A stretch of DNA of 12,588 nt from a virus (Duplodnaviria > Heunggongvirae > Uroviricota > Caudoviricetes). The position numbers and the translations under genes were made by a program. Of this stretch, positions 3,190 to 12,588 are shown piece by piece (the first letter of the stretch is position 1; each line of letters begins with the position of its first letter). The DNA lies in IMG/VR virus record IMGVR_UViG_2713896773_000018, positions 1-12,588 of that record; one strand, 5' to 3'. Below the pieces are notes generated by a model that did no database searches, was not told where the DNA came from, and was given only the letters and a program-made list of their open reading frames with translations.

Positions 3190-3411
3190 TTAGGCGGCAA
3201 AGATACCTGGATATAGAACTTCGCGAGGAAGTCCGGTTACTTCTTCGTATTTACGCATTTTTGTTACTGGAAGGCTGCCACCTCGCTTTTTAAGCATATT
3301 GATGGCCTGAGGCGTTACGCCGACCTTTTCAGCAAGCACCTTTTGAGAGCCGCCCACTGCATTAATGGCTTTCTCAAGCGGGGTGCTGGCGTTGGATTTT
3401 TTGTTGATCAT
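3190..3411 (-). CDS. cro: Cro-like HTH regulator (73 aa)
   Basis: First gene divergent from the repressor. HTH segment QKVLAEKVGVTPQAINMLKKRGG. ATG at 3409-3411 with a GGAG RBS. Confidence 0.8.
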   Translation of the reverse strand: MINKKSNASTPLEKAINAVGGSQKVLAEKVGVTPQAINMLKKRGGSLPVTKMRKYEEVTGLPREVLYPGIFAA

Positions 3412-3432
3412 GTTTTGCTCCGCTCATGTGTA

Positions 3433-3506
3433 ATCAACACCATGTTAATTCATGGCGTGGATTAAATCAACATTATGGTGATGGAAAAAATCCACATGTT
3501 GTTTAC
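3433..3506. promoter_or_regulatory. OR-like operator cluster: three 17-bp sites of form ATC[AC]ACA-N3-TGnTnAn between cro and cI
   Basis: Site A 3433-3449 ATCAACA CCA TGTTAAT; site B 3466-3482 ATCAACA TTA TGGTGAT; site C 3490-3506 ATCCACA TGT TGTTTAC. The same half-site recurs in the OL region at 5458-5541. Confidence 0.65.
3442..3470 (-). promoter_or_regulatory. candidate PR promoter for cro (minus strand): -35 TTGATT (3465-3470), -10 TAACAT (3442-3447), 17-bp spacer
   Basis: Hexamers read on the minus strand; they overlap operator sites A and B as PR overlaps OR1/OR2 in lambda. The -10 is a weak match, so the exact hexamers are uncertain. Confidence 0.4.
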
Positions 3507-3528
3507 CATGCATGGAGCGGAGGGTTTT

Positions 3529-4248
3529 ATGAGCAGCATTTCTGAAAGAATTAAATTTTTACTGGCAAGGGAAGGCTTGAAGCAGCGGGATTTGGCTGAG
3601 GCTTTGTCGACTAGCCCACAGACCGTTAACAACTGGATAAAAAGAGACGCGTTAAGTCGTGAGGCGGCGCAACAAATATCTGAAAAATTCGGTTATTCTC
3701 TTGACTGGTTATTAAATGGAGAGGGTTCTCCAAAGAAGGATCTGGAGAGCAACATCCCGCCAGAGTCTGAGTGGGGAACTGTCGACGCTTGGGACAAAAA
3801 TACCCCCCTACCTGACGATGAGGTGGAAGTACCGTTTCTGAAGGATATCGAGTTTGCGTGTGGTGATGGACGAGTACACGATGAGGATCACAACGGTTTT
3901 AAATTGCGCTTTTCAAAAGCAACGCTCCGTCGAGTTGGAGCTAACACAGATGGGTCTGGCATCCTGTGTTTCCCTGCTACTGGCGACAGCATGGAACCTG
4001 TGATACCGGATGGTACGACTGTAGCCGTCGATACGAACAACAAACGCATAGTTGATGGGAAACTGTATGCCATTGGTCAGACAGATGGCGGGAATGGTCA
4101 ACTCAAGCGCATTAAACAGCTGTATCGTAAGCCAGGTGGGAAGCTGATCATCCGCAGTTACAACAACGACTCCTACCCAGACGAAGAGGCTGATATTGAT
4201 GATGTCGAGATAATTGGCCGTCTCTTCTGGTACTCGGTATTGCTGTAG
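3529..4248 (+). CDS. cI: CI-like prophage repressor (XRE-type HTH + S24 LexA-like autopeptidase), 239 aa
   Basis: N-terminal HTH (RDLAEALSTSPQTVNNWIKRD). C-terminal S24 signatures GDSMEP (catalytic Ser) and GQLKRIKQL (Lys). The ATG at 3529 has a GGAGCGGAGGG RBS; the upstream ATGs at 3475/3481 lie inside operator site B and lack an RBS. Confidence 0.9.
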   Translation: MSSISERIKFLLAREGLKQRDLAEALSTSPQTVNNWIKRDALSREAAQQISEKFGYSLDWLLNGEGSPKKDLESNIPPESEWGTVDAWDKNTPLPDDEVEVPFLKDIEFACGDGRVHDEDHNGFKLRFSKATLRRVGANTDGSGILCFPATGDSMEPVIPDGTTVAVDTNNKRIVDGKLYAIGQTDGGNGQLKRIKQLYRKPGGKLIIRSYNNDSYPDEEADIDDVEIIGRLFWYSVLL

Positions 4249-4294
4249 CGGTGGCCTGATGAGACGTTTTGGTGAAAGCATATAAGGACTGTTG

Positions 4295-5161
4295 ATGGAA
4301 AACACTGGCTTACACGATGTTAATTTTTCACTTAGATATGACGGTTTGGATGCTGAAAAGCATGAGATTGAACTTTCTTCGCTCGGTGAATCGCTAAAGG
4401 GATTTTCGAAGATATTAGCTACAGCTGGAACCTTCGCATTAACCCAAAAGTACTCGCGAAGCACCTCAACTCAAGAGGTTAAAATTTACGCTACCGAAGC
4501 TAGGGCCAATTGTTTTTCTCTTGATACTATCATGAATTTTATCAGTCAGTCTCAATTGTTCTCAGGGTCTGCGGGGGCTATACTTGGCGCATTAGTGCCT
4601 TATATCTTCGCTAAAAACTCGCAGAAGAAAGAGGAAATGAAATACCTAAAAGAAGCACTTGAGAAGGCAATTGAGGCCCTCGGAAATAAAGATAAAGATA
4701 CCATCTCAGGTCTAATCTCAGTGATTGACAAGATGGCTAGTGAGTTACGCCCATCAGTTAGACAGGCAGTTTCCCCCATCGGTACCACCTGTAATAAGAT
4801 AAGCGTCACACCGGGGAATGGTTTCAAGCCTGCTGTAATTGATGAGCAAGATAAAGCAGTAATAGACCAGTTGGACGACGACGAAGTTCTTGGCTTAAGG
4901 GAGTATCGAATCTTCCTTACTGAATTCGACGCTCACCGAATGACCGCTAAAGTCATTATAGAAGGTGATGATTCAGATAAGCGCATCTCAGCACAAATAA
5001 GCGATCCATCTGCTTCAAAGGCAGACAACCCGTATCTCATTTCACTTAGTCGTTTTCTGTCAACGGGTCTAAGTCATGAGTCAGCGGTAAAAGTAACTGC
5101 CAAAGCAGCAGTTAGAAAAGGGGCTATTAGTAAACTTTTCATAGTTGATATTGAGCTTTAA
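4295..5161 (+). CDS. hypothetical protein (288 aa) in the rex/immunity-moron position; one short hydrophobic stretch, no recognised domain
   Basis: ATG at 4295 with AAGGA RBS (the ORF track starts at a TTG at 4292). Immediately downstream of and co-oriented with cI, followed by a terminator. AT-rich: about 38% GC in a hand-counted 130-nt sample. Hydrophobic stretch [17 protein letters not shown], then a K/E-rich helical segment. Confidence 0.8.
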
Positions 5162-5164
5162 CAA

Positions 5165-5187
5165 CCGGCCACCGCGCCGGGTTTTTT
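5165..5187 (+). terminator. rho-independent terminator ending the cI operon
   Basis: CCGGC-CACCG-GCCGG stem-loop followed by TTTTTT, directly after the stop at 5159-5161. Confidence 0.7.
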
Positions 5188-5191
5188 GTGC

Positions 5192-5401
5192 CTACTTCAC
5201 AGCTTTACTACCCTTCCTGACTATCTCAGCTGCATCCCTGTTCACACCCTTACCTATCACGTTTCCCGTTTCCTTCCGGTACCGTTCCAGCTTGTCGATG
5301 ATGTTTTGCTGGGTCATAGGTAAATCTGCCAGTGACAACTCCATGACCGCCCGCCCCATGGCGTGAACCATCATGTTCACTCTTTCTTCATCCAAGTCCA
5401 T
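5192..5401 (-). CDS. hypothetical small protein (69 aa), convergent with the cI operon
   Basis: Strong RBS AAAGGAGTGGGTA before the ATG at 5399-5401. Its upstream region is the AT-rich operator-bearing segment 5402-5500. No family recognised. Confidence 0.6.
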   Translation of the reverse strand: MDLDEERVNMMVHAMGRAVMELSLADLPMTQQNIIDKLERYRKETGNVIGKGVNRDAAEIVRKGSKAVK

Positions 5402-5457
5402 TACCCACTCCTTTTTGATGTTTTTTTCAGCATATCACTTATGCCACCAAAAAATAA

Positions 5458-5542
5458 ATCAACATAAAAATCAACAGTAAACGATTAAATCAACAAAATA
5501 AATCCACAAGGTGTTGACCTACAAATCCACATGATGTTTAAT
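5458..5542 (+). promoter_or_regulatory. OL/PL-like region: operator half-site array plus candidate PL (-35 TTGACC 5514-5519, -10 TTTAAT 5537-5542, 17-bp spacer)
   Basis: ATCAACA at 5458, 5470 and 5489; full sites ATCCACA AGG TGTTGAC (5502-5518) and ATCCACA TGA TGTTTAA (5525-5541). The promoter hexamers sit inside these two sites, as in lambda OL1/OL2. Confidence 0.6.
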
Positions 5543-5588
5543 TACTCCATCGAAACGAAACATCGACAGCTGAGCGAAGTTAGCCAGC

Positions 5589-5619
5589 GGCGGACAGCAA
5601 GTCGCCTGCTTTTTAACAA
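5589..5619 (+). promoter_or_regulatory. candidate nutL-like antitermination site: hairpin (5589-5606) followed by boxA-like TGCTTTTTAACAA (5607-5619)
   Basis: TGCTTTTTAACAA differs at one position from the E. coli rrn boxA core TGCTCTTTAACAA as I recall it. It lies about 40-70 nt downstream of the predicted PL start, preceded by a GGCGG/UCGCC stem. Confidence 0.4.
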
Positions 5620-5843
5620 CATGCAAAGTCGGAACAGCACTCAGTAATCCTGTTTAGACCCCAACGTACAAATTCGGCGCAGCACCGGGCGCGATCCGGT
5701 CGGTGTGAGGCTACCCCCTCGCGAGAGCGATAAAGGCGTGGGAACGGGCAACACTGGCTGGATGAGAGGTGCGAAGCGCAAACAGATTTATTCCAGTCCA
5801 TTCGAAGTTGAGTGGGCTGGGCTGAATCACAAGAGGATTTTTT

Positions 5844-6056
5844 ATGACTCAGACATACATTCCGGCGTGTTTAAGAGACCTTCCTAAGAAGCGTCAGAAG
5901 CCACGCAAACAGGCGATTAAAGAAGCGCAAGTGGAAGTTCTGAATAAGGCAATCGCATCGATAAAAGACGATATGCGTGCGTTCAAAACAGAAGAGCAGC
6001 GTCGCGGTCATTACCAGGCGATCAGCACACTCTCACAGATTCGTGATGAGTTGTAG
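5844..6056 (+). CDS. small basic protein (70 aa), first gene of the PL operon (N position); function unassigned
   Basis: Strong RBS AAGAGGA with a 6-nt spacer. Basic N-terminal segment LPKKRQKPRKQAIK. No clear arginine-rich motif of the lambda N type, so an antiterminator role is positional inference only. Confidence 0.6.
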   Translation: MTQTYIPACLRDLPKKRQKPRKQAIKEAQVEVLNKAIASIKDDMRAFKTEEQRRGHYQAISTLSQIRDEL

Positions 6057-6079
6057 AAGCTGATAGATAAAGCATTTCT

Positions 6080-6097
6080 CCCGCATCAGCGGGTAAC
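6080..6097 (+). repeat. copy 1 of a 17-bp direct repeat CCGCATCAGCGGGTAAC (hairpin CCCGC-ATCA-GCGGG)
   Basis: Identical 17-mer at 6081-6097 and 6303-6319, each just upstream of a gene's RBS. Confidence 0.8.
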
Positions 6098-6113
6098 TAA
6101 GTGGAGAGTACGT

Positions 6114-6302
6114 ATGCACAAGTGTCAATTCTGTGGGTACTTTCTGGCATCTGAAGAGATGCAGAGAATATCTGTAAACATGGTTGGCAGGCCTTACAAC
6201 ATCTGCATTCCATGCTCAGAAAAGTACAAAAAGAAAGGCCTGTGGGATTCGGCAAAAAACGATATCGACTGGAAATCACTTCCATGCGTCGATGAGACAT
6301 AA
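6114..6302 (+). CDS. small zinc-ribbon-like protein (62 aa; CxxC...CxxC)
   Basis: RBS GGAGAG with a 5-nt spacer. Cys pairs CQFC and CIPC about 24 residues apart. AT-rich. Flanked by the 17-bp direct repeats. Confidence 0.6.
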   Translation: MHKCQFCGYFLASEEMQRISVNMVGRPYNICIPCSEKYKKKGLWDSAKNDIDWKSLPCVDET

Positions 6303-6319
6303 CCGCATCAGCGGGTAAC
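6303..6319 (+). repeat. copy 2 of the 17-bp direct repeat CCGCATCAGCGGGTAAC
   Basis: Exact match to 6081-6097; begins one nucleotide after the stop of the 6114-6302 gene. Confidence 0.8.
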
Positions 6320-6335
6320 GACAGAGGGTAAGTCA

Positions 6336-7004
6336 ATGATTCGTCTTAACAACGAAATTAAAAATCAGCTATGCCATAACCTGCTTCTCGCATCCCCATT
6401 GTTTGAGAAAGCGAAAGCTGCGGTTAATGAGAGGGCGAAAATTGTTGAAGAAATTCGACAGGCATTGCTCAAGCAGGAAAACACTAGCGATGAGCAAATA
6501 ACTAAGGCTCGGGAAGATTTCAAAGATAACTCCTTCATCAAGATGCAGGTCGGCGCTAAAACTGCAACTTTAAAGGTCATTATTAATGGTGAGTATCACG
6601 AATTAGCCAGGAACGGTTTGGATCATCGCTATCGCCACCGTGGAAAACATATTGGTAAGCACGATCTTGAAAGCGACCTGTTCTTCGGAGCTTCCTTCGC
6701 GCCTGTAATTGATTCGGGTTTCGTTCCTGAAAGTTACAGCACGCTGAAGAAAGTTGGAAAATTACACGACCGACTCACTGAATCGACGGTAACCATCAAC
6801 GTTCTTTACGATGAAGTTGATGCCTTCCAATTGCAGGTTAAAGGTGCTCTAACCAAAGTCTCAACTGTTAAAAAACTGGCTGAGATGTGGCCTGAGGCAG
6901 TGCCATATTTGCCTGAGGTGGAACGCCGTGAAGCGACCAGCACCGCACTTGCCATTCCCGTTGAAACGCTAAACGCCCTTTGCGGCATACCAAAGAATGA
7001 ATGA
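6336..7004 (+). CDS. hypothetical protein (222 aa), AT-rich accessory gene in the ral/sieB-equivalent position
   Basis: RBS GAGGG. A long ORF with no internal stops in AT-rich DNA, followed by a strong terminator. No family recognised. Confidence 0.8.
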   Translation: MIRLNNEIKNQLCHNLLLASPLFEKAKAAVNERAKIVEEIRQALLKQENTSDEQITKAREDFKDNSFIKMQVGAKTATLKVIINGEYHELARNGLDHRYRHRGKHIGKHDLESDLFFGASFAPVIDSGFVPESYSTLKKVGKLHDRLTESTVTINVLYDEVDAFQLQVKGALTKVSTVKKLAEMWPEAVPYLPEVERREATSTALAIPVETLNALCGIPKNE

Positions 7005-7026
7005 CCCGCTCCGGCGGGTTTTTTAT
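7005..7026 (+). terminator. rho-independent terminator
   Basis: CCCGC-TCCG-GCGGG stem-loop followed by TTTTTTAT, immediately after the TGA at 7002-7004. Confidence 0.8.
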
Positions 7027-7165
7027 CGGCCATACATAGGCAGATTTTCGAGTCTGCCCATTTATGACAACCGGCGGCCATCCACCGCCCATTGAAACAC
7101 TGAATAAATGCGTTGAAGTCTTGTATTAACCGTTCGGCGGCGCGGCCTTAAGCGCGGAGATGATT

Positions 7166-7675
7166 ATGACTCTTATCGAATTGACCAAAAAGAAAATGGC
7201 AATTGAAGCCGAACTGGCTCAGTTGAAGGCGAAGTTTGTTGATGACACCTCACGCATCGGTAAAGAGCTGATTGCCGTGTCTGAAGGTATCAACCAGGCC
7301 AATAAAGGCCTAACGGTTGAGATGGTTAGGCATGGCATGACGATCATTAACTTCGGTGACCCGAAACAAAGCATGGAGCGGCGCGGGTGTGTTGAAGACG
7401 CGATTAACGACATTGCGTCGGGGTTCAACCGTCTGAGCGAGCGTTATTTTGGCACAAAAAACTACGCCCACTGGAGCGATCAGCGTGAAGACCATCGCTA
7501 TGGATATGGCCCTAAACACGGCTCTATCTGCTTCAAGATCGGTTTAACTGGCACCGCACTTAATAAGCTGGCAAGCGGCGGGTTGAGTGATTACGACGCT
7601 GAATGCGCTATCTACTGCCTGATGAACATTGACGCCATCAATGCGGCAAACGACAAAGCCCGGGAGGCATCATGA
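7166..7675 (+). CDS. hypothetical phage protein (169 aa)
   Basis: GGAG at 7156-7159 favours the ATG at 7166 over the one at 7160. The stop overlaps the next ORF's start (ATGA). Confidence 0.7.
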   Translation: MTLIELTKKKMAIEAELAQLKAKFVDDTSRIGKELIAVSEGINQANKGLTVEMVRHGMTIINFGDPKQSMERRGCVEDAINDIASGFNRLSERYFGTKNYAHWSDQREDHRYGYGPKHGSICFKIGLTGTALNKLASGGLSDYDAECAIYCLMNIDAINAANDKAREAS

Positions 7676-7830
7676 CAGTCACCCATAACGGAAAGAAGTA
7701 CACCGCCAAAAAGCTCAACGATAACGAGTGGCAGCTGACGTCCGTATCGGCACCGCGTGAAAAGCTGACGCTTAACCGCTGGCATATGAAGCTGGCTGGC
7801 CTCCTGGAACAGGTTGAGGTGAAGGTATGA
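7672..7830 (+). CDS. small hypothetical protein (52 aa; MTVTHNGKKYTAKKLNDNEWQLTSVSAPREKLTLNRWHMKLAGLLEQVEVKV), not in the supplied ORF track
   Basis: Strong RBS GGGAGG 5 nt upstream of the ATG at 7672. ATGA overlaps with both the upstream and downstream genes suggest translational coupling. Confidence 0.55.
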   Translation: MTVTHNGKKYTAKKLNDNEWQLTSVSAPREKLTLNRWHMKLAGLLEQVEVKV

Positions 7831-8333
7831 TGCGAAAGCACAAGTTGCCAAGTGCTGAGGAGATAGATTCCTTGCTGGATTACAACCCTGAAACCGGAGT
7901 ATTTACGTGGAAAGTGACGAAATCAGGATGGGTTGTAAAGGGGCGGCCTGCTGGTTCAAAAAACAATAATGGCTATCTCCGAGTTGGTATTGGAAGAAGG
8001 CACTACTTCCTTTCTCGAATCGCATTTTTCTTATGCACCGGGGAATCACCTGAAGAAGTAGACCATATCAATGGTGACAGAACAGATAACAGGGCGTGCA
8101 ACTTAAGAGCCGCAAGCCGTCATGAAAACTGCCTCAATAAGTCGGTAAGAAGCGACAGCAGGACTGGTGTAAAGGGCGTCTCATGGCGACCGGATGTTAA
8201 AAAATGGTCTGCACGATCAACTGATTCATCGGGGAAGAGAGTGTTTTTAGGTTACTACCGCACCATCAGAGATGCGGTGGCTGTCCTTAATGATTTTCGG
8301 AGAGAACAGCATGGTGAGTTTGCAAAAAATTAG
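7827..8333 (+). CDS. HNH homing endonuclease with C-terminal AP2-type DNA-binding domain (168 aa)
   Basis: HNH motif EEVDHINGDRTDNRACNLRAASRHENCLN. AP2-like segment GVKGVSWRPDVKKWSARST...KRVFLGYY. RBS GAGGTGAAGG. Confidence 0.85.
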   Translation: MMRKHKLPSAEEIDSLLDYNPETGVFTWKVTKSGWVVKGRPAGSKNNNGYLRVGIGRRHYFLSRIAFFLCTGESPEEVDHINGDRTDNRACNLRAASRHENCLNKSVRSDSRTGVKGVSWRPDVKKWSARSTDSSGKRVFLGYYRTIRDAVAVLNDFRREQHGEFAKN

Positions 8334-8544
8334 CAGCAACTTGCACTACGGCACCACCCCGCTCATTCGCCAGTGCGTCACGCCAGGCATGATGGCATTG
8401 CATGAAGGCCGCACCTATCGCGTCTCAGCAGTCATTCAGGAGCGCAAATGGGTGTACCTGCACACCGATGCAGAAATTATCCGCCTCAGTGACTGCGTGA
8501 TTGACGTCCTTCTGGACGGTCACGGAAACCCTATCCAGCACTAA
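8311..8544 (+). CDS. hypothetical protein (77 aa), start overlapping the 3' end of the HNH gene by 23 nt
   Basis: RBS GGAGAG with a 6-nt spacer before the ATG at 8311; the ORF-track start at 8272 has no RBS. Confidence 0.5.
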   Translation: MVSLQKISSNLHYGTTPLIRQCVTPGMMALHEGRTYRVSAVIQERKWVYLHTDAEIIRLSDCVIDVLLDGHGNPIQH

Positions 8545-8613
8545 CCACCCTATTCATCCGATCGGCCTGGCTTCTGCGGGCGGGATCTGCACATCCAAAT
8601 TTCAGGAGAAACC

Positions 8614-9582
8614 ATGAGCGAAGTAACGGACTTAACTGTCATCGAAATCAAGCCGGAACAGGCCCCAGTGCTTTACGTAGCGGGCGGCCTTGACGCGTAC
8701 CTTGAGCAAATCCGCCAGGCTGTAAACGAAGTGCCGGACCTGTCCACGAAGAAAGGCCGTGACCGTGTCGCCTCTCTGGCGGCGCAGGTATCCCGCAGCA
8801 AGACAGCAATCGAAAAGCCGGGCCGTGAATACCTTAAGCGCCTGAAAGAGGCTGTGCGTCCGGCTGAGGCCGAAATTAAGCGTTTCGTTGATGCTTGCGA
8901 CGAGCTACGTGATGCCACCCGCCGCCCACTCACCGAATGGGAAGCCGAGCAGGAGCGCATCAAGGCTGAAGAAGCCATGAATGCGCTGCACGCCGAAGCG
9001 CTGGAGATGAACGAAGAGTTTGACCGCCAGCGCGCCGCTCAAATCGAAGCGGACCACGAAATGGCTCTGCTGATGAATGAGAAGTTTGACCGTGACCGCG
9101 AAGAGCAGCGCCGCCTGGCAGAACAGGCTCAGCGCGAACGTGACGAACGACTGAAGCAGGACGCGGCAGAACAAGCCCGCCGCGATGCCGAAGCGATGCA
9201 CAAAGCAGAGATTGAAGCCGCAGCGCGCCGTGAAGCTGAAGAGAAAGCACGTGCAGAGCTGGCTGAACGCCAGCGCGTCGAAGCGGAACAGCGTGCAGCT
9301 CGCGAGAAGCAGGAAGCAATCGCAGAAGAAAAACGCAAAGCGCAGGAAGAAGCAGATCGCATCAAGCGCGAAGCTGAAGCGAAAGAGAAAGCCCGTCTGG
9401 CCGAAGAGCAGCGCAAAGTTGAAGAAGAAGCGCGCCGCGCCGCAGACAAAGAGCACCGCCGCACCGTCAACCGTCGCGTCATCGCCGACCTTATAGCTCA
9501 GGGCATCCCCGAAGAATTCGCGCAGAAAGCACTGCTGGCGATCGCTGGCGGCAAAGTGCAGGACGCGCACATCAAATATTGA
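8614..9582 (+). CDS. hypothetical protein (322 aa) with a long Ala/Glu/Arg/Lys-rich low-complexity central region
   Basis: RBS AGGAG. Globular-looking N-terminus of about 100 aa, then about 180 aa of ERKA-rich repeats (e.g. AEEKRKAQEEADRIKREAEAKEKARLAEEQRKVEEEARRA), then a short C-terminal tail. Located immediately upstream of gam. Confidence 0.75.
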   Translation: MSEVTDLTVIEIKPEQAPVLYVAGGLDAYLEQIRQAVNEVPDLSTKKGRDRVASLAAQVSRSKTAIEKPGREYLKRLKEAVRPAEAEIKRFVDACDELRDATRRPLTEWEAEQERIKAEEAMNALHAEALEMNEEFDRQRAAQIEADHEMALLMNEKFDRDREEQRRLAEQAQRERDERLKQDAAEQARRDAEAMHKAEIEAAARREAEEKARAELAERQRVEAEQRAAREKQEAIAEEKRKAQEEADRIKREAEAKEKARLAEEQRKVEEEARRAADKEHRRTVNRRVIADLIAQGIPEEFAQKALLAIAGGKVQDAHIKY

Positions 9583-9589
9583 GGCAACC

Positions 9590-9871
9590 ATGAACGCATA
9601 CCTCACTTACGACCGAATCGAAGATCGGCGCTGGGTTGAGCAGCAGCTCACCGACGAGAAGGAGAAGTGGATCGACAACCGGGCGAAAGAACTGATCGCC
9701 ATGTTCCCGAAATATGCTCTGCAAATGAGTAGCCTGTTTCTCCCAAAAGAAGCGCAAATGGCACTAGTCGGTGAAAAGGCAGAGGAAGCCTATAACGACT
9801 ATGTCACACGCATCTGTTACGACCGCGCCGAAGAAGAGTGGGATCGCCTTCATCCAACCTGCCCATTTTAA
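9590..9871 (+). CDS. gam: Gam-like host-nuclease (RecBCD) inhibitor, 93 aa
   Basis: N-terminus MNAYLTYDRIEDRRW... resembles the short form of lambda Gam (MNAYYIQDRLEAQSW...) from memory. Position directly upstream of the annealing-protein and exo genes. RBS GAGG. Confidence 0.55.
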   Translation: MNAYLTYDRIEDRRWVEQQLTDEKEKWIDNRAKELIAMFPKYALQMSSLFLPKEAQMALVGEKAEEAYNDYVTRICYDRAEEEWDRLHPTCPF

Positions 9872-9880
9872 GGAGGGGCT

Positions 9881-10798
9881 ATGAGCTTAACCCTTGTTGA
9901 TTTCGTCAAACAACAGGAGCCGCTTTTCATTAAGGCGGCCACAGACGAGCGGATGGTGTGGGCGAAGGAAAGCCAGTTCGCCATCCAGCTATTTCAGAAC
10001 AATGACTACCTCGCGAAAGTCGCATTCCAGAACCAGACCAGCACGCAGAACGCAATAATCAACGTTGCGGCTATCGGTATTTCGCTAAACCCAGCTCAGA
10101 AGCTGGCTTACCTGGTTCCGCGTAAAGGGGCAGTTTGCCTCGACATCAGTTACATGGGCCTGATGCACATTGCGCAGCAGTCTGGCGCCATTAAATGGTG
10201 TCAGTCGGCAATTGTTCGCAGAAACGACCAGTTCCGCCGCGAAGGGCTCGATAAGCCGCCGGTCCATATCTACAACGACTTCGATACCGAAGAGCAGCGC
10301 GGGGACATCGTAGGGGCATATGTAACGGTAAAAACTGACGATGGTGATTACCTCACCCATACGATGCGCATCGATGCCATTTACTCCATCCGTGACCGGT
10401 CTGAAGCATGGAAGAAGTACAAATCTGACAACAGTAAAAAGTGTCCATGGGTCACTGACGAAGAACAGATGATCCTCAAAACAGTCGTGAAGCAGGCAGC
10501 AAAATACTGGCCTCGCCGTGAGCGCCTGGACGCCGCCATAGACCACGTTAACACCGAGGGCGAAGAAGGTATCAACTTTACAGCAGAGCGTCAGCCTGAG
10601 CGCGATATAACGCCGCTTAGCGAAACCACGCAGAAAGAGATAAACGACCTGCTTGTCTCTTTGGATAAGACATGGGATGACGATCTTCTCCCTCTCTGCT
10701 CACGCATTTTCAAACGCCCTATCACGCAGCCAGCAGACCTGACAGAGCTTGAAGGTGTTAAAGCTCTCGGGTTCCTCAGACAAAAGGCGGCAGCATGA
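9881..10798 (+). CDS. single-strand annealing protein: RecT-like core with a Red-beta (Bet)-like C-terminal tail, 305 aa
   Basis: Perfect RBS AGGAGG. The C-terminal ~70 aa ([13 protein letters not shown]...[16 protein letters not shown]...[12 protein letters not shown]) closely match the lambda Bet C-terminus as I recall it. The N-terminal ~230 aa look RecT-like rather than Bet-like. Stop overlaps the exo start (ATGA). Confidence 0.8.
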
Positions 10799-11475
10799 CA
10801 CCAGAAATTATCCTGGCCCGGACCGGCATTGACGTAACCACTATCCAGCAGGGCGACGAGGCGTGGCACCGGCTGCGCCTCGGCGTTATCACCGCATCTG
10901 AAGTTCACAACGTCATTTCCAAGCCCAGATCTGGGAAGAAGTGGACAGACATGAAAATTTCCTACTTCCACACCCTACTCGCCGAGGTATGCACCGGCGT
11001 AGCGCCAGAGGTTAACGCCAAGGCGCTGGCCTGGGGGAAGCAGTATGAAGAAGACGCCCGCACCCTCTTCGAGTTCACCACCGACGTGAAAGTCACGGAG
11101 TCTCCGATCTTGTTCCGTGACGAGAGCATGCGCACCGCGTGCTCACCTGACGGCCTTTGCAGTAACGGATTCGGCCTCGAATTGAAATGCCCGTTCACCT
11201 CCCGCGACTTCATGAAATTCCGCCTTGGCGGTTTCGAAGCCATCAAGTCTGCCTACATGGCCCAGGTGCAGTTCAGCATGTGGGTGACCGGGAAAGACGC
11301 CTGGTTCTTTGCCAACTACGACCCGCGCATGAAGCGCGAAGGTATTCACCACGTCGTCGTTGAGCGGGATCCACAGTACATGACCAATTTCAACGAAATG
11401 GTGCCGGAGTTCATCGAGAAGATGGACGAGGCGCTGGCGGAGATCGGCTTCAGGTTCGGGGAGCAGTGGAAATGA
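10795..11475 (+). CDS. exo: lambda-type 5'-3' exonuclease (Red-alpha / YqaJ family), 226 aa
   Basis: Near-collinear, high-identity match to lambda Exo from memory ([14 protein letters not shown]...[24 protein letters not shown]...[31 protein letters not shown]...[10 protein letters not shown]). Confidence 0.93.
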
Positions 11476-11518
11476 AACGCACACCATTTTACCGCAGGCC
11501 CGGGCGAACCGGGCAATC

Positions 11519-12097
11519 ATGAAACGCCTGGACGATGTTTGCGGCAAAGCAGGATGGCGCAATGAATACCGCGATATTCCCAACAACGGCGGAGTTGAAT
11601 GCGGCATATCAATCAAGATTGATTCCGAATGGGTAACCAAATGGGATGCTGCTGAAAACACGCAGGTAGAAGCCGTCAAAGGTGGTCGTTCAGGTGCAAT
11701 GAAGCGTGCTGCCGTTCAGTGGGGAATAGGTCGGTATCTGTATAACCTTGAGGAAGGTTTCGCACAAACATCTCTCGATAAAAAGCAGGGATGGCACAGG
11801 GCAAAACTCAAGGGTGGAACAGGATTTTACTGGCTCCCTCCATCGCTGCCGGGATGGGCAATCCCAGCATCAGATAACAAACCATCACCAGAAAATACCA
11901 ACCATAAATCTCCATCGGTTGACTGCGAGCAAATCCTGAAAGACTTCAGCGATTATGCGTCAACAGAAACTGATAAGAAAAAACTCATCGAGCGTTATCA
12001 GCGTGACTGGCAATTAATGGCTGGCAACGAGGAGGCGCAGGCTAAATGCGTTCAGGTAATGAACATCAGAGTTAACGAACTAAAACAGGCGGCATAA
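11519..12097 (+). CDS. Erf/Rad52-superfamily-like protein, apparently N-terminally shortened (192 aa)
   Basis: C-terminal ~55 aa (EQILKDFSDYASTETDKKKLIERYQRDWQLMAGNEEAQAKCVQVMNIRVNELKQAA) closely match the P22 Erf C-terminus as I recall it. Rad52-like motif AMKRAAVQWGIGRYLY at residues ~60-75 leaves too little upstream sequence for a complete annealing domain. Weak RBS. Confidence 0.55.
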   Translation: MKRLDDVCGKAGWRNEYRDIPNNGGVECGISIKIDSEWVTKWDAAENTQVEAVKGGRSGAMKRAAVQWGIGRYLYNLEEGFAQTSLDKKQGWHRAKLKGGTGFYWLPPSLPGWAIPASDNKPSPENTNHKSPSVDCEQILKDFSDYASTETDKKKLIERYQRDWQLMAGNEEAQAKCVQVMNIRVNELKQAA

Positions 12098-12319
12098 ATG
12101 GCAAGCAGAGGCGTAAATAAGGTGATCATTATTGGTCGCCTTGGGCATGATCCAGAAATCAGAGATTCATTCAACAAGGTTGCAAAGCGCGTTCCGGCAT
12201 TCAAAGGAATCCTCAACGAATGGGATTCACTCGTTGCTCTGTTGAAGTCTGAAATGAAGATACACGGAAACAAAGCACCAGAGACTTACAGAAGAATCAG
12301 CGAGCTACGCAAGGACTAA
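12098..12319 (+). CDS. 73-aa ORF whose first 22 codons are an ssb 5' remnant (MASRGVNKVIIIGRLGHDPEIR) fused to unrelated sequence
   Basis: The first ~66 nt resemble the start of E. coli ssb at protein and DNA level, from memory. After codon 22 no frame continues SSB-like sequence, so this is a recombination junction rather than a frameshift. Whether the product is functional is unknown. Confidence 0.45.
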   Translation: MASRGVNKVIIIGRLGHDPEIRDSFNKVAKRVPAFKGILNEWDSLVALLKSEMKIHGNKAPETYRRISELRKD

Positions 12320-12320
12320 C

Positions 12321-12381
12321 GCCTCACACTCGATGAGGCCTGTACATATCTGATAGAGCCGCTATATGGCGGTTTATTTTT
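12321..12381 (+). terminator. two hairpins after the ssb-remnant ORF; the second (12358-12381) is terminator-like with a T-tract
   Basis: Perfect 6-bp inverted repeat GCCTCA-N7-TGAGGC at 12321-12339. Then CCGC-TATATG-GCGG followed by TTTATTTTT. Confidence 0.45.
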
Positions 12382-12396
12382 GCCTGGAGAATTAAG

Positions 12397-12588
12397 ATGA
12401 CCGATACCAGCCTGATTCCTGAGAAAGAAGTGATGAACAAGCTCGGTGTTTCATCACGTCAGACAATCTGGAACTATACCAAACGGCACGGATTTCCGAA
12501 GCCAGTCAGAACCCACCCCAAATCATACCTTCGTGAAGCTGTTGAAGGGTGGATTCTTAACGGTGGCGTTAATCAGAAATGCTCCTGA
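12397..12588 (+). CDS. xis: excisionase / AlpA-family small HTH protein (63 aa)
   Basis: RBS GGAGAA. Motif EKEVMNKLGVSSRQTIWNYTKRHGFPKPV is typical of the AlpA/Xis family. Sits at the distal end of the early-left operon where xis-int lie in lambdoid phages. The stop is at the last three bases of the window. Confidence 0.75.
   Translation: MTDTSLIPEKEVMNKLGVSSRQTIWNYTKRHGFPKPVRTHPKSYLREAVEGWILNGGVNQKCS

Follow-up and report, generated by a model that had tools for sequence, protein, structure and literature searches.

Gene 40A of phage phi80 encodes a 288 amino acid protein, and an identical copy is present in the 12,588 nt stretch of viral DNA analysed here (IMG/VR record IMGVR_UViG_2713896773_000018, referred to below as the window). 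The window represents the early/immunity region of a lambdoid prophage of the phi80 type, in which 40A lies directly downstream of the gene for the cI repressor on the same strand. Homologues of 40A are found behind repressor genes of many immunity types, and this positional linkage is the strongest evidence at hand. We propose that 40A is an accessory ('moron') gene whose product, a single protein acting on its own, would protect the lysogen by exclusion or abortive infection. This reading, taken together with the mechanism outlined below, is given a probability of about 0.42. Some anti-phage role is probable. A post-entry abortive or exclusion mode is suggested tentatively, and a specific membrane-perturbation step is doubtful.

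Gene 40A and its protein family

The 40A open reading frame (4295–5161, plus strand) extends from an ATG at 4295 to a TAA at 5159–5161. Its product shows 100% identity to phi80 protein 40A (PHI80_46; GenBank JX871397/NC_021190; WP_000432054.1). Among natural sequences, a prophage of E. coli O19:H7 730V1 matches the window best, and the RefSeq annotation of this prophage has exactly the same cI and 40A coding sequences (CDSs). The first-pass annotation of this DNA had proposed a genuine 288 amino acid gene directly behind cI on the same strand, and the open reading frame, the RefSeq CDS and a Pfam match at E = 3.8e-62 bear this out; the end point that it gave, 5187, takes in a terminator-like hairpin and T-run, whereas the reading frame itself stops at 5161. 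It had also described the gene as uncharacterised, but the gene was already on record as phi80 gene 40A (X13065) and under DUF7946/DUF7947. 40A is a real gene, long known, never characterised and catalogued as a domain of unknown function (DUF); the novelty concerns its function and how strongly it is linked to repressors, and does not extend to the existence of the gene.

In the older phi80 early-region record X13065 the gene is split into 40A (209 amino acids) and 40B (95 amino acids), probably the result of a sequencing frameshift. The product name of PHI80_46 in JX871397 is 'protein 40A (acetate kinase superfamily domain)'. This label was rejected, as no such match was found in Pfam at E <= 1 or in NCBIfam at 0.1, and no such fold match was found. 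The GC content of 40A is 42.1% (37.8% at third codon positions), compared with 48.1% for cI and 51.0% for the whole window. The first-pass annotation was right about the direction of the AT-richness; its figure of about 38% GC fits third codon positions only. The identical protein WP_000432054.1 is also annotated in NEB5-alpha, a DH5alpha derivative with phi80dlacZdeltaM15. In that strain (NZ_CP053607.1, locus L094, 4130–5843) the phi80 module of cro, cI, 40A and a 69 amino acid gene is intact, and the 40A protein is that of the window. The annotation of phage HK225 mentions phi80 cI in DH10B.

Two Pfam domains cover most of the protein: DUF7946 at residues 11–191 (E = 3.8e-62, 210 bits, cutoff 27) and DUF7947 at residues 201–286 (E = 1.2e-20, 73.8 bits, cutoff 27). 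They occur in the order DUF7946–DUF7947, both above the gathering score, which places the window protein in the phi80 40A family. In PHROGs it is assigned to phrog_5147, function unknown. The family comprises 97 homologous clusters at 90% identity in a word-indexed search and 640 clusters at 50% identity in an exhaustive profile search, and nearly all full-length members are 270–300 amino acids long. The two-domain architecture is fixed: a Pfam scan of length and coverage variants found only DUF7946 and DUF7947, with no fused effector or enzyme domain, and a profile search with the N-terminal domain for other architectures returned only truncated DUF7946 fragments. The window protein has all of the residues H23, P161, D237-P238, Y247 and K270, whose conservation in two family alignments (A1 and A3) is complete or at least 90%.

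The 40A family is a prophage family. Among about 50,000 sequenced phage records it is found only in phi80 and one metagenomic phage; most members come from Klebsiella, Serratia, Enterobacter, Morganella and Proteus, and the family reaches Vitreoscilla. Papers that mention DUF7946, DUF7947 or the related candidate PDC-S42 were not found, and a search on phi80 and 40A returned only unrelated papers; both searches were incomplete, so that an earlier published test of the family is possible.

Linkage to repressor genes and the exchangeable slot

Synteny was assessed in 80 loci from IMG/VR viral contigs. In 63 of 79 the nearest upstream open reading frame on the same strand encodes an S24-type repressor, and in 5 further loci a repressor that has a helix-turn-helix (HTH) domain only. 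The repressors are diverse: grouped at <80% identity, the upstream proteins give 36 clusters, their mean column identity is 16%, and Peptidase_S24 is detected by Pfam in 26 of the 36, which puts the S24 repressors at a minimum of 26 unrelated types. The linkage persists for 40A homologues of only 28–33% identity. The gap between repressor and homologue ranges from 14 to 249 nt, with a median of 84, in 30 loci that sample different lineages. The gene order in a Vitreoscilla prophage is S24 repressor, 40A homologue (48% identical) and SIR2_2, and in metagenomic lambdoid phages with different replication modules the homologue is likewise behind an S24 repressor. The first-pass annotation had named conservation of the slot across related prophages as a point to check, and the 63 of 79 loci provide that check.

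Phages with a phi80-type cI do not all carry the same genes in the slot. It is occupied by 40A in phi80 and the window, by a hypothetical gene and a YafO-family toxin gene in strain CX07, and by HK97 gp48/gp49-like genes in HK225. 40A is therefore dispensable for the repressor and represents exchangeable cargo. The downstream neighbours of 40A homologues vary with lineage and include genes for an N peptide, SieB, SIR2_2 (PADLOC PDC-S25), a ThsA-like/PNP protein and a deaminase. Since these genes are not conserved, 40A has no obligate partner. Together with operators on both sides and location on the cI strand (see below), the polymorphic slot and the S24 synteny give good comparative support to the earlier proposal of an accessory gene in the rex position that is expressed in lysogens.

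Several loci have additional genes in the slot. The SIR2_2 protein (537 amino acids; PADLOC PDC-S25, E = 2e-142) is encoded directly downstream of the homologue in the Vitreoscilla sp. C1 prophage (L005, 9661–11274) and in a second locus (L071, 7655–9265). Behind the repressor, 40A homologue and SIR2_2 gene thus constitute a two-gene stack of candidate defences. At two other loci the nearest upstream same-strand reading frame is a DinI-like gene (L087, 636–869) or a DUF333 lipoprotein gene (L020, 5656–5880). As these occupy the usual place of the repressor, the slot can evidently stack several lysogen-expressed genes.

The immunity region and expression of 40A

The minus strand carries a cro-like gene (3190–3411), a cII-like gene and O/P-type replication genes, and the order on the plus strand is cI, 40A and then the PL-side early genes. 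Between the cro-like gene and cI is the OR/PRM-PR control region (3412–3528), with operator repeats of the AAATCAACA/AAATCCACA type. The OL/PL operator-promoter region (5452–5542) carries repeat families D1, D2, D5 and D8 and forms the far-side bound of the immunity region. D1, D2 and D5 are common to the OR and OL regions, and the AAATCAACA/AAATCCACA repeats are present both upstream of cI and at 5452–5542. The phi80 annotation has CI operators, pR and pRM at the place equivalent to 3412–3528, and CI operators and pL at that equivalent to 5452–5542. Operator repeats flank the two genes on both sides, and therefore cI and 40A are inside the immunity region.

The cI gene (3529–4248, plus strand) encodes a phi80-type repressor of 239 amino acids with a variant C-terminus, consisting of an HTH domain and Peptidase_S24 (Pfam Peptidase_S24, E = 7.5e-16; Phage_CI_repr, E = 2.5e-10). 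The spacer between cI and 40A (4249–4294, plus strand) is 46 nt long, where about 45 nt had been estimated, and contains a Shine-Dalgarno sequence, AAGGA, at 4284–4288, 6 nt before the ATG. A scan and folding of the 46 nt did not find a promoter-like or terminator-like site. Behind 40A, a terminator-like hairpin with a U-run (5165–5187, plus strand; CCGGC-CACCGC-GCCGG) closes the cI–40A unit. The hairpin proper (5165–5180) has a 5 bp GC stem of -9.7 kcal/mol and is no better than shuffled sequence (z = -0.5); to call it a clean terminator, as in the first-pass annotation, was generous, although hairpin and U-run are indeed present. An Rfam scan of the window gave no match.

This arrangement suggests that 40A is most likely co-transcribed with cI from the maintenance promoter in lysogens, and it appears to be the only gene that shares the cI transcription unit.

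Structure of the 40A protein

An AlphaFold2 model of 40A (mean pLDDT 81.5, pTM 0.66) begins with a small beta-alpha-beta-beta unit, continues with a hydrophobic helix and then a helical segment, and ends in an OB-like barrel. The first three make up the DUF7946 region (4325–4867, plus strand; residues 11–191). The N-terminal unit carries near-invariant RYDGLDAxxH and ANCF motifs, and the helical segment, which is rich in lysine and glutamate, ends in a conserved SPIG turn. The DUF7947 barrel (4895–5152, plus strand; residues 201–286) has five strands and an inserted helix, and contains the conserved D237-P238, Y247 and K270. The N-terminal domain modelled alone has a pLDDT of 65, too poor for a fold search, and a family-profile sequence search of solved structures gave nothing meaningful (best E = 0.017, helical fragments).

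The hydrophobic helix (4553–4612, plus strand; residues 87–106), which contains an S-xxx-G-xxx-G motif, is a borderline candidate for spanning the membrane or inserting into it, and its Wimley-White octanol free energy is -4.1 kcal/mol. The hydrophobic stretch described earlier corresponds to residues 90–106 and is followed, as had been stated, by a K/E-rich helix. The position of the segment is conserved family-wide and its sequence is the least conserved of the protein; no charged residue is present in 59 of 94 family members, and small-xxx-small motifs are frequent. Lysine and arginine are more abundant on the C-terminal flank in 72 of the 94 (3.3 versus 0.9 on the N-terminal side). If the helix spans the membrane, these charges would put the C-terminal two-thirds of the protein in the cytoplasm.

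Phenotypes of phi80 lysogens

Lula/phi80 lysogens do not plate T4 (spot assay, 30 °C, AB1157; Rotman et al., 2010, PMC2885432). The yield of P1 on phi80 lysogens is reduced about 10-fold, with no determinant named, and P1 still enters these cells and raises the phage titre, as it does in lambda lysogens (PMC2885432). As the only gene sharing the cI transcription unit, 40A is an obvious candidate for the T4 and P1 phenotypes. However, at 37 °C wild-type T4 is routinely plaqued on DH5alpha (PMC7588440), and an identical cI–40A locus is present in a DH5alpha-type strain; 40A alone is therefore probably not the T4 block. The idea that T4 exclusion by phi80 lysogens depends on 40A alone was given less weight accordingly, and the link to T4 is weak unless temperature, strain background or expression level matters.

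Proposed function and alternative explanations

In the mechanism that we envisage, the C-terminal OB-like barrel and the conserved N-terminal unit would bind a phage-derived ligand. The barrel is not basic, and a protein is thus at least as likely a ligand as a nucleic acid. Binding would alter the state of the membrane helix, for example by oligomerisation through the small-xxx-small motifs, and the resulting perturbation of the membrane would abort the infection. This mode is likened to the way in which the single proteins AbiP and PdpSau and the two-protein system RexAB are thought to act.

A number of points weigh against this proposal, in addition to the plating of T4 on DH5alpha. The best 19-residue Kyte-Doolittle window of the hydrophobic helix (residues 88–106) scores 1.67, which is borderline, and distant family members have weaker values. 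A single-pass topology, with the helix in mid-protein, would place an 86-residue domain in the periplasm without a signal peptide. The OB-like domain has 13 K+R and 14 D+E residues, unlike the basic domain of PdpSau, and in an hhalign comparison the family alignment A3 matched PdpSau (phage 53 ORF016) with a probability of only 0.5% (E = 0.11). The match to the defence candidate PDC-S42, described below, is restricted to the N-terminal region, and PDC-S42 is itself an unvalidated computational candidate. A minority of 40A homologues are found outside recognisable prophages or away from any S24 gene; at loci outside prophages, Pfam recognised no domain in the small genes located upstream. Lastly, the linkage to repressors could reflect a function tied to repressor biology.

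The last point leads to the alternative that 40A is an accessory of the lysogenic switch, modulating repressor stability or cleavage, induction or the lysis–lysogeny decision. This would explain why it travels with S24 genes, which are adjacent in 63 of 79 loci and represent many immunity types. In L087 the gene for DinI, a modulator of RecA, separates the homologue from the repressor region, single-stranded DNA is among the ligands that OB folds can bind, and P1 infection raises the titre in phi80 lysogen cultures, although it does so in lambda lysogens too (PMC2885432). Yet 40A is absent from phages with a 93%-identical phi80-type cI, which have unrelated cargo in its place, and the repressor therefore does not need it to work. 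A specific protein–protein partnership is also difficult to reconcile with repressors that are mutually unrelated (16% mean column identity). Some homologues are located away from any S24 gene, and BstA has the same linkage and is a defence protein (PMC8585504). A switch accessory is considered quite improbable. Slightly less probable still is a lysogenic-conversion gene of the bor/lom type, concerned with envelope, stress or colonisation, or a misplaced structural gene. The hydrophobic helix together with the K/E-rich helix does resemble envelope-associated anchors, and one source calls a homologue YhcB-like, but no signal peptide, adhesin-type or outer membrane protein-type domain was found by Pfam, and the neighbours in the slot are defence-like rather than virulence-like. 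As for a structural role, the NCBIfam model LAPAL_fam ('putative phage structural protein') matches at E = 1.2e-5; however, its 24.8 bits are far below the 60-bit cutoff, the match is confined to the N-terminal region, and a virion gene would be out of place on the cI strand of the immunity region.

Superinfection exclusion at the step of DNA entry is the most probable of the alternatives, although it too is judged improbable. 40A would in this case be a single-pass inner-membrane protein with its N-terminus out and its C-terminus in, and either the periplasmic N-terminal domain or the cytoplasmic OB-like domain would disturb the genome-injection machinery without the need for a nuclease. SieA of P22 and gp15 of HK97 act by interfering with injection of the incoming phage genome. 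The flanking charges (3.3 versus 0.9 K+R; 72 of 94 members) favour the required orientation, but export of an 86-residue N-terminal domain without a signal peptide would be unusual, and this domain has a pLDDT of only 65 when modelled alone and seems to be packed against the rest of the protein. No enzymatic domain was detected in 40A, and SieB is found in a neighbouring position in one lineage. SNIPE provides a precedent for a membrane-anchored protein with a cytoplasmic DNA-binding domain that acts at injection sites (PMC13190303). The failure of phi80 lysogens to plate T4 (PMC2885432) would fit a block at entry as well; against this are the plating of T4 on DH5alpha (PMC7588440) and the observation that P1 enters phi80 lysogens and raises the prophage titre (PMC2885432).

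Returning to the proposal of a single-protein exclusion or abortive-infection factor, its broadest form may be stated as follows. The DUF7946–DUF7947 protein would found a new family of prophage immunity factors, widespread in Proteobacteria and each consisting of one protein. It would be tied firmly to the repressor operon and so be made only in lysogens, would combine a membrane-inserting glycine-zipper helix with an OB-like sensor barrel, and would abort or exclude heterologous phages. This is possible but on the unlikely side, and the same holds for the corollary that no relative with this pairing of glycine-zipper helix and OB-like barrel has been solved or characterised. If it were true, a function would be found for a gene listed as 40A since GenBank record X13065. 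In addition, the identical copy in DH5alpha-type strains (DH10B, too, is on record as having the phi80 cI region) would be an unrecognised variable in phage and defence assays performed there. Even if the defence reading fails, the consistent synteny of repressor and 40A across unrelated immunity types needs explanation.

The convergent 69 amino acid gene and mosaicism of the window

A gene of 69 amino acids (5192–5401, minus strand; phrog_3975, WP_000362427.1) is the downstream neighbour of 40A and convergent with it. The first-pass annotation had treated it as a possible companion. This was rejected: the gene is downstream of a 40A homologue in only 8 of 80 loci, and in strain CX07 it is kept although 40A is replaced by different cargo. 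The gene carries no annotation in the phi80 record JX871397, and HK639 as well as Enterobacter phages without 40A have sequences of about 84% DNA identity. The start of the gene is closely preceded, within 5402–5500, by operator-type repeats (AAATCAACA), so that it may be an early gene under CI control, divergent from PL and running towards 40A.

Relative to phi80 (L001) the window is mosaic. The cro–cI–40A–OL module is 97–99% identical, and the PL-side genes (5560–12588) differ; a 70 amino acid phrog_5305 gene (5844–6056) is in place of phi80 N, and an Nmad5-family gene is at 6336–7004. The reading frames at 9881–11475 may, by their appearance, be of the RecT/exonuclease type. Differences are also seen around 40A itself. 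The spacer between cI and 40A in phi80 (L001, 3840–3977) is 136 nt long with the motif GTGGCCTGA(A/T)GAGACGTTT duplicated, whereas the 46 nt spacer of the window has one copy. The C-terminus of cI reads ...GRLFWYSVLL in the window and ...GFVFWYSVLRYRR in phi80. In addition, a 9 nt exact inverted repeat (GCGGTGGCC/GGCCACCGC) brackets the 40A reading frame at 4248–4261 and 5162–5175, with one arm directly after the cI stop codon and the other within the terminator hairpin. The inverted repeat and the differences in spacer and C-terminus may mark a cassette boundary or a recombination scar, or may be due to chance.

Comparison with known defence systems

Pfam and PADLOC scans found no relation of 40A to RexA, RexB, SieB or BstA, in agreement with the first-pass annotation, which could not match the protein to any of the first three. 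At E <= 1, Pfam returned DUF7946, DUF7947 and three chance-level matches only. The Pfam SieB model (PF14163) did not match 40A, and the same library found SieB in a neighbour gene of another lineage. The PADLOC scan gave PDC-S42 only (E = 1.1e-5, residues 9–136 against profile positions 4–130 of 302). This profile is matched by 15 of 62 diverse family members, at best with E = 3.2e-8, and overall length is similar. By these profile matches PDC-S42 looks like a sister family, not the same family.

If our proposal is correct, the prophage defences that are linked to repressors, Rex, BstA and GiPD474 among them, would gain a family of new structure. 40A occupies the position that Rex has: next after cI and on the cI strand, in the part of the immunity region that precedes the operators of the PL side. 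The presumed lysogenic expression would be a further likeness, and the proposed membrane-level abortive infection would be analogous. The differences are that RexA and RexB are two proteins and 40A is one, and that RexB is a multi-pass channel while 40A contains no more than a single hydrophobic helix of borderline character.

BstA has a KilA-N-like DNA-binding domain and localises to phage replication sites. It resembles 40A in being encoded by a single gene, for a protein of about 300 amino acids, downstream of the repressor in BTP1 of Salmonella and other prophages of diverse Gram-negative bacteria (PMC8585504). The interval between cI and N has been described as a hotspot that holds rexAB and bstA, and bstA as 'strikingly' conserved behind repressors (PMC8585504). 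BstA also has a DNA self-immunity element (aba), and no sequence homology to 40A was found. GiPD474 is a single-gene defence in the immunity region, and remAIN is a further defence of this region (PMC12724215). SNIPE (PD-lambda-1) is a membrane-anchored single protein that acts at the inner membrane, with a periplasmic N-terminus and a cytoplasmic ligand/DNA-binding domain (PMC13190303), but it is composed of DUF4041 and a GIY-YIG nuclease, and no nuclease or other catalytic domain was detected in 40A.

In protein architecture the closest model is the class formed by AbiP of Lactococcus and PdpSau of S. aureus prophages. These are single proteins with one membrane helix, a basic or K-rich helix and an OB-like domain, and the prophage-encoded PdpSau, at 278 amino acids, is close to 40A in size. 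AbiP binds nucleic acids and blocks phage replication, and cells positive for pdpSau undergo a change in membrane potential and permeability after infection (PMC13064643; PMC10127798). The membrane helix of these proteins is N-terminal, whereas the hydrophobic helix of 40A is central and follows an 86-residue domain, and the PdpSau gene is in the lysis module rather than behind a repressor. In the hhalign comparison with PdpSau only the helix and the basic stretch aligned, and tblastn of 40A gave no staphylococcal phage match. By analogy, 40A may work like the AbiP/PdpSau class without being a member of it. If so, it would represent a Gram-negative counterpart to these membrane-anchored OB-like factors, placed behind the repressor as are rexAB and bstA.

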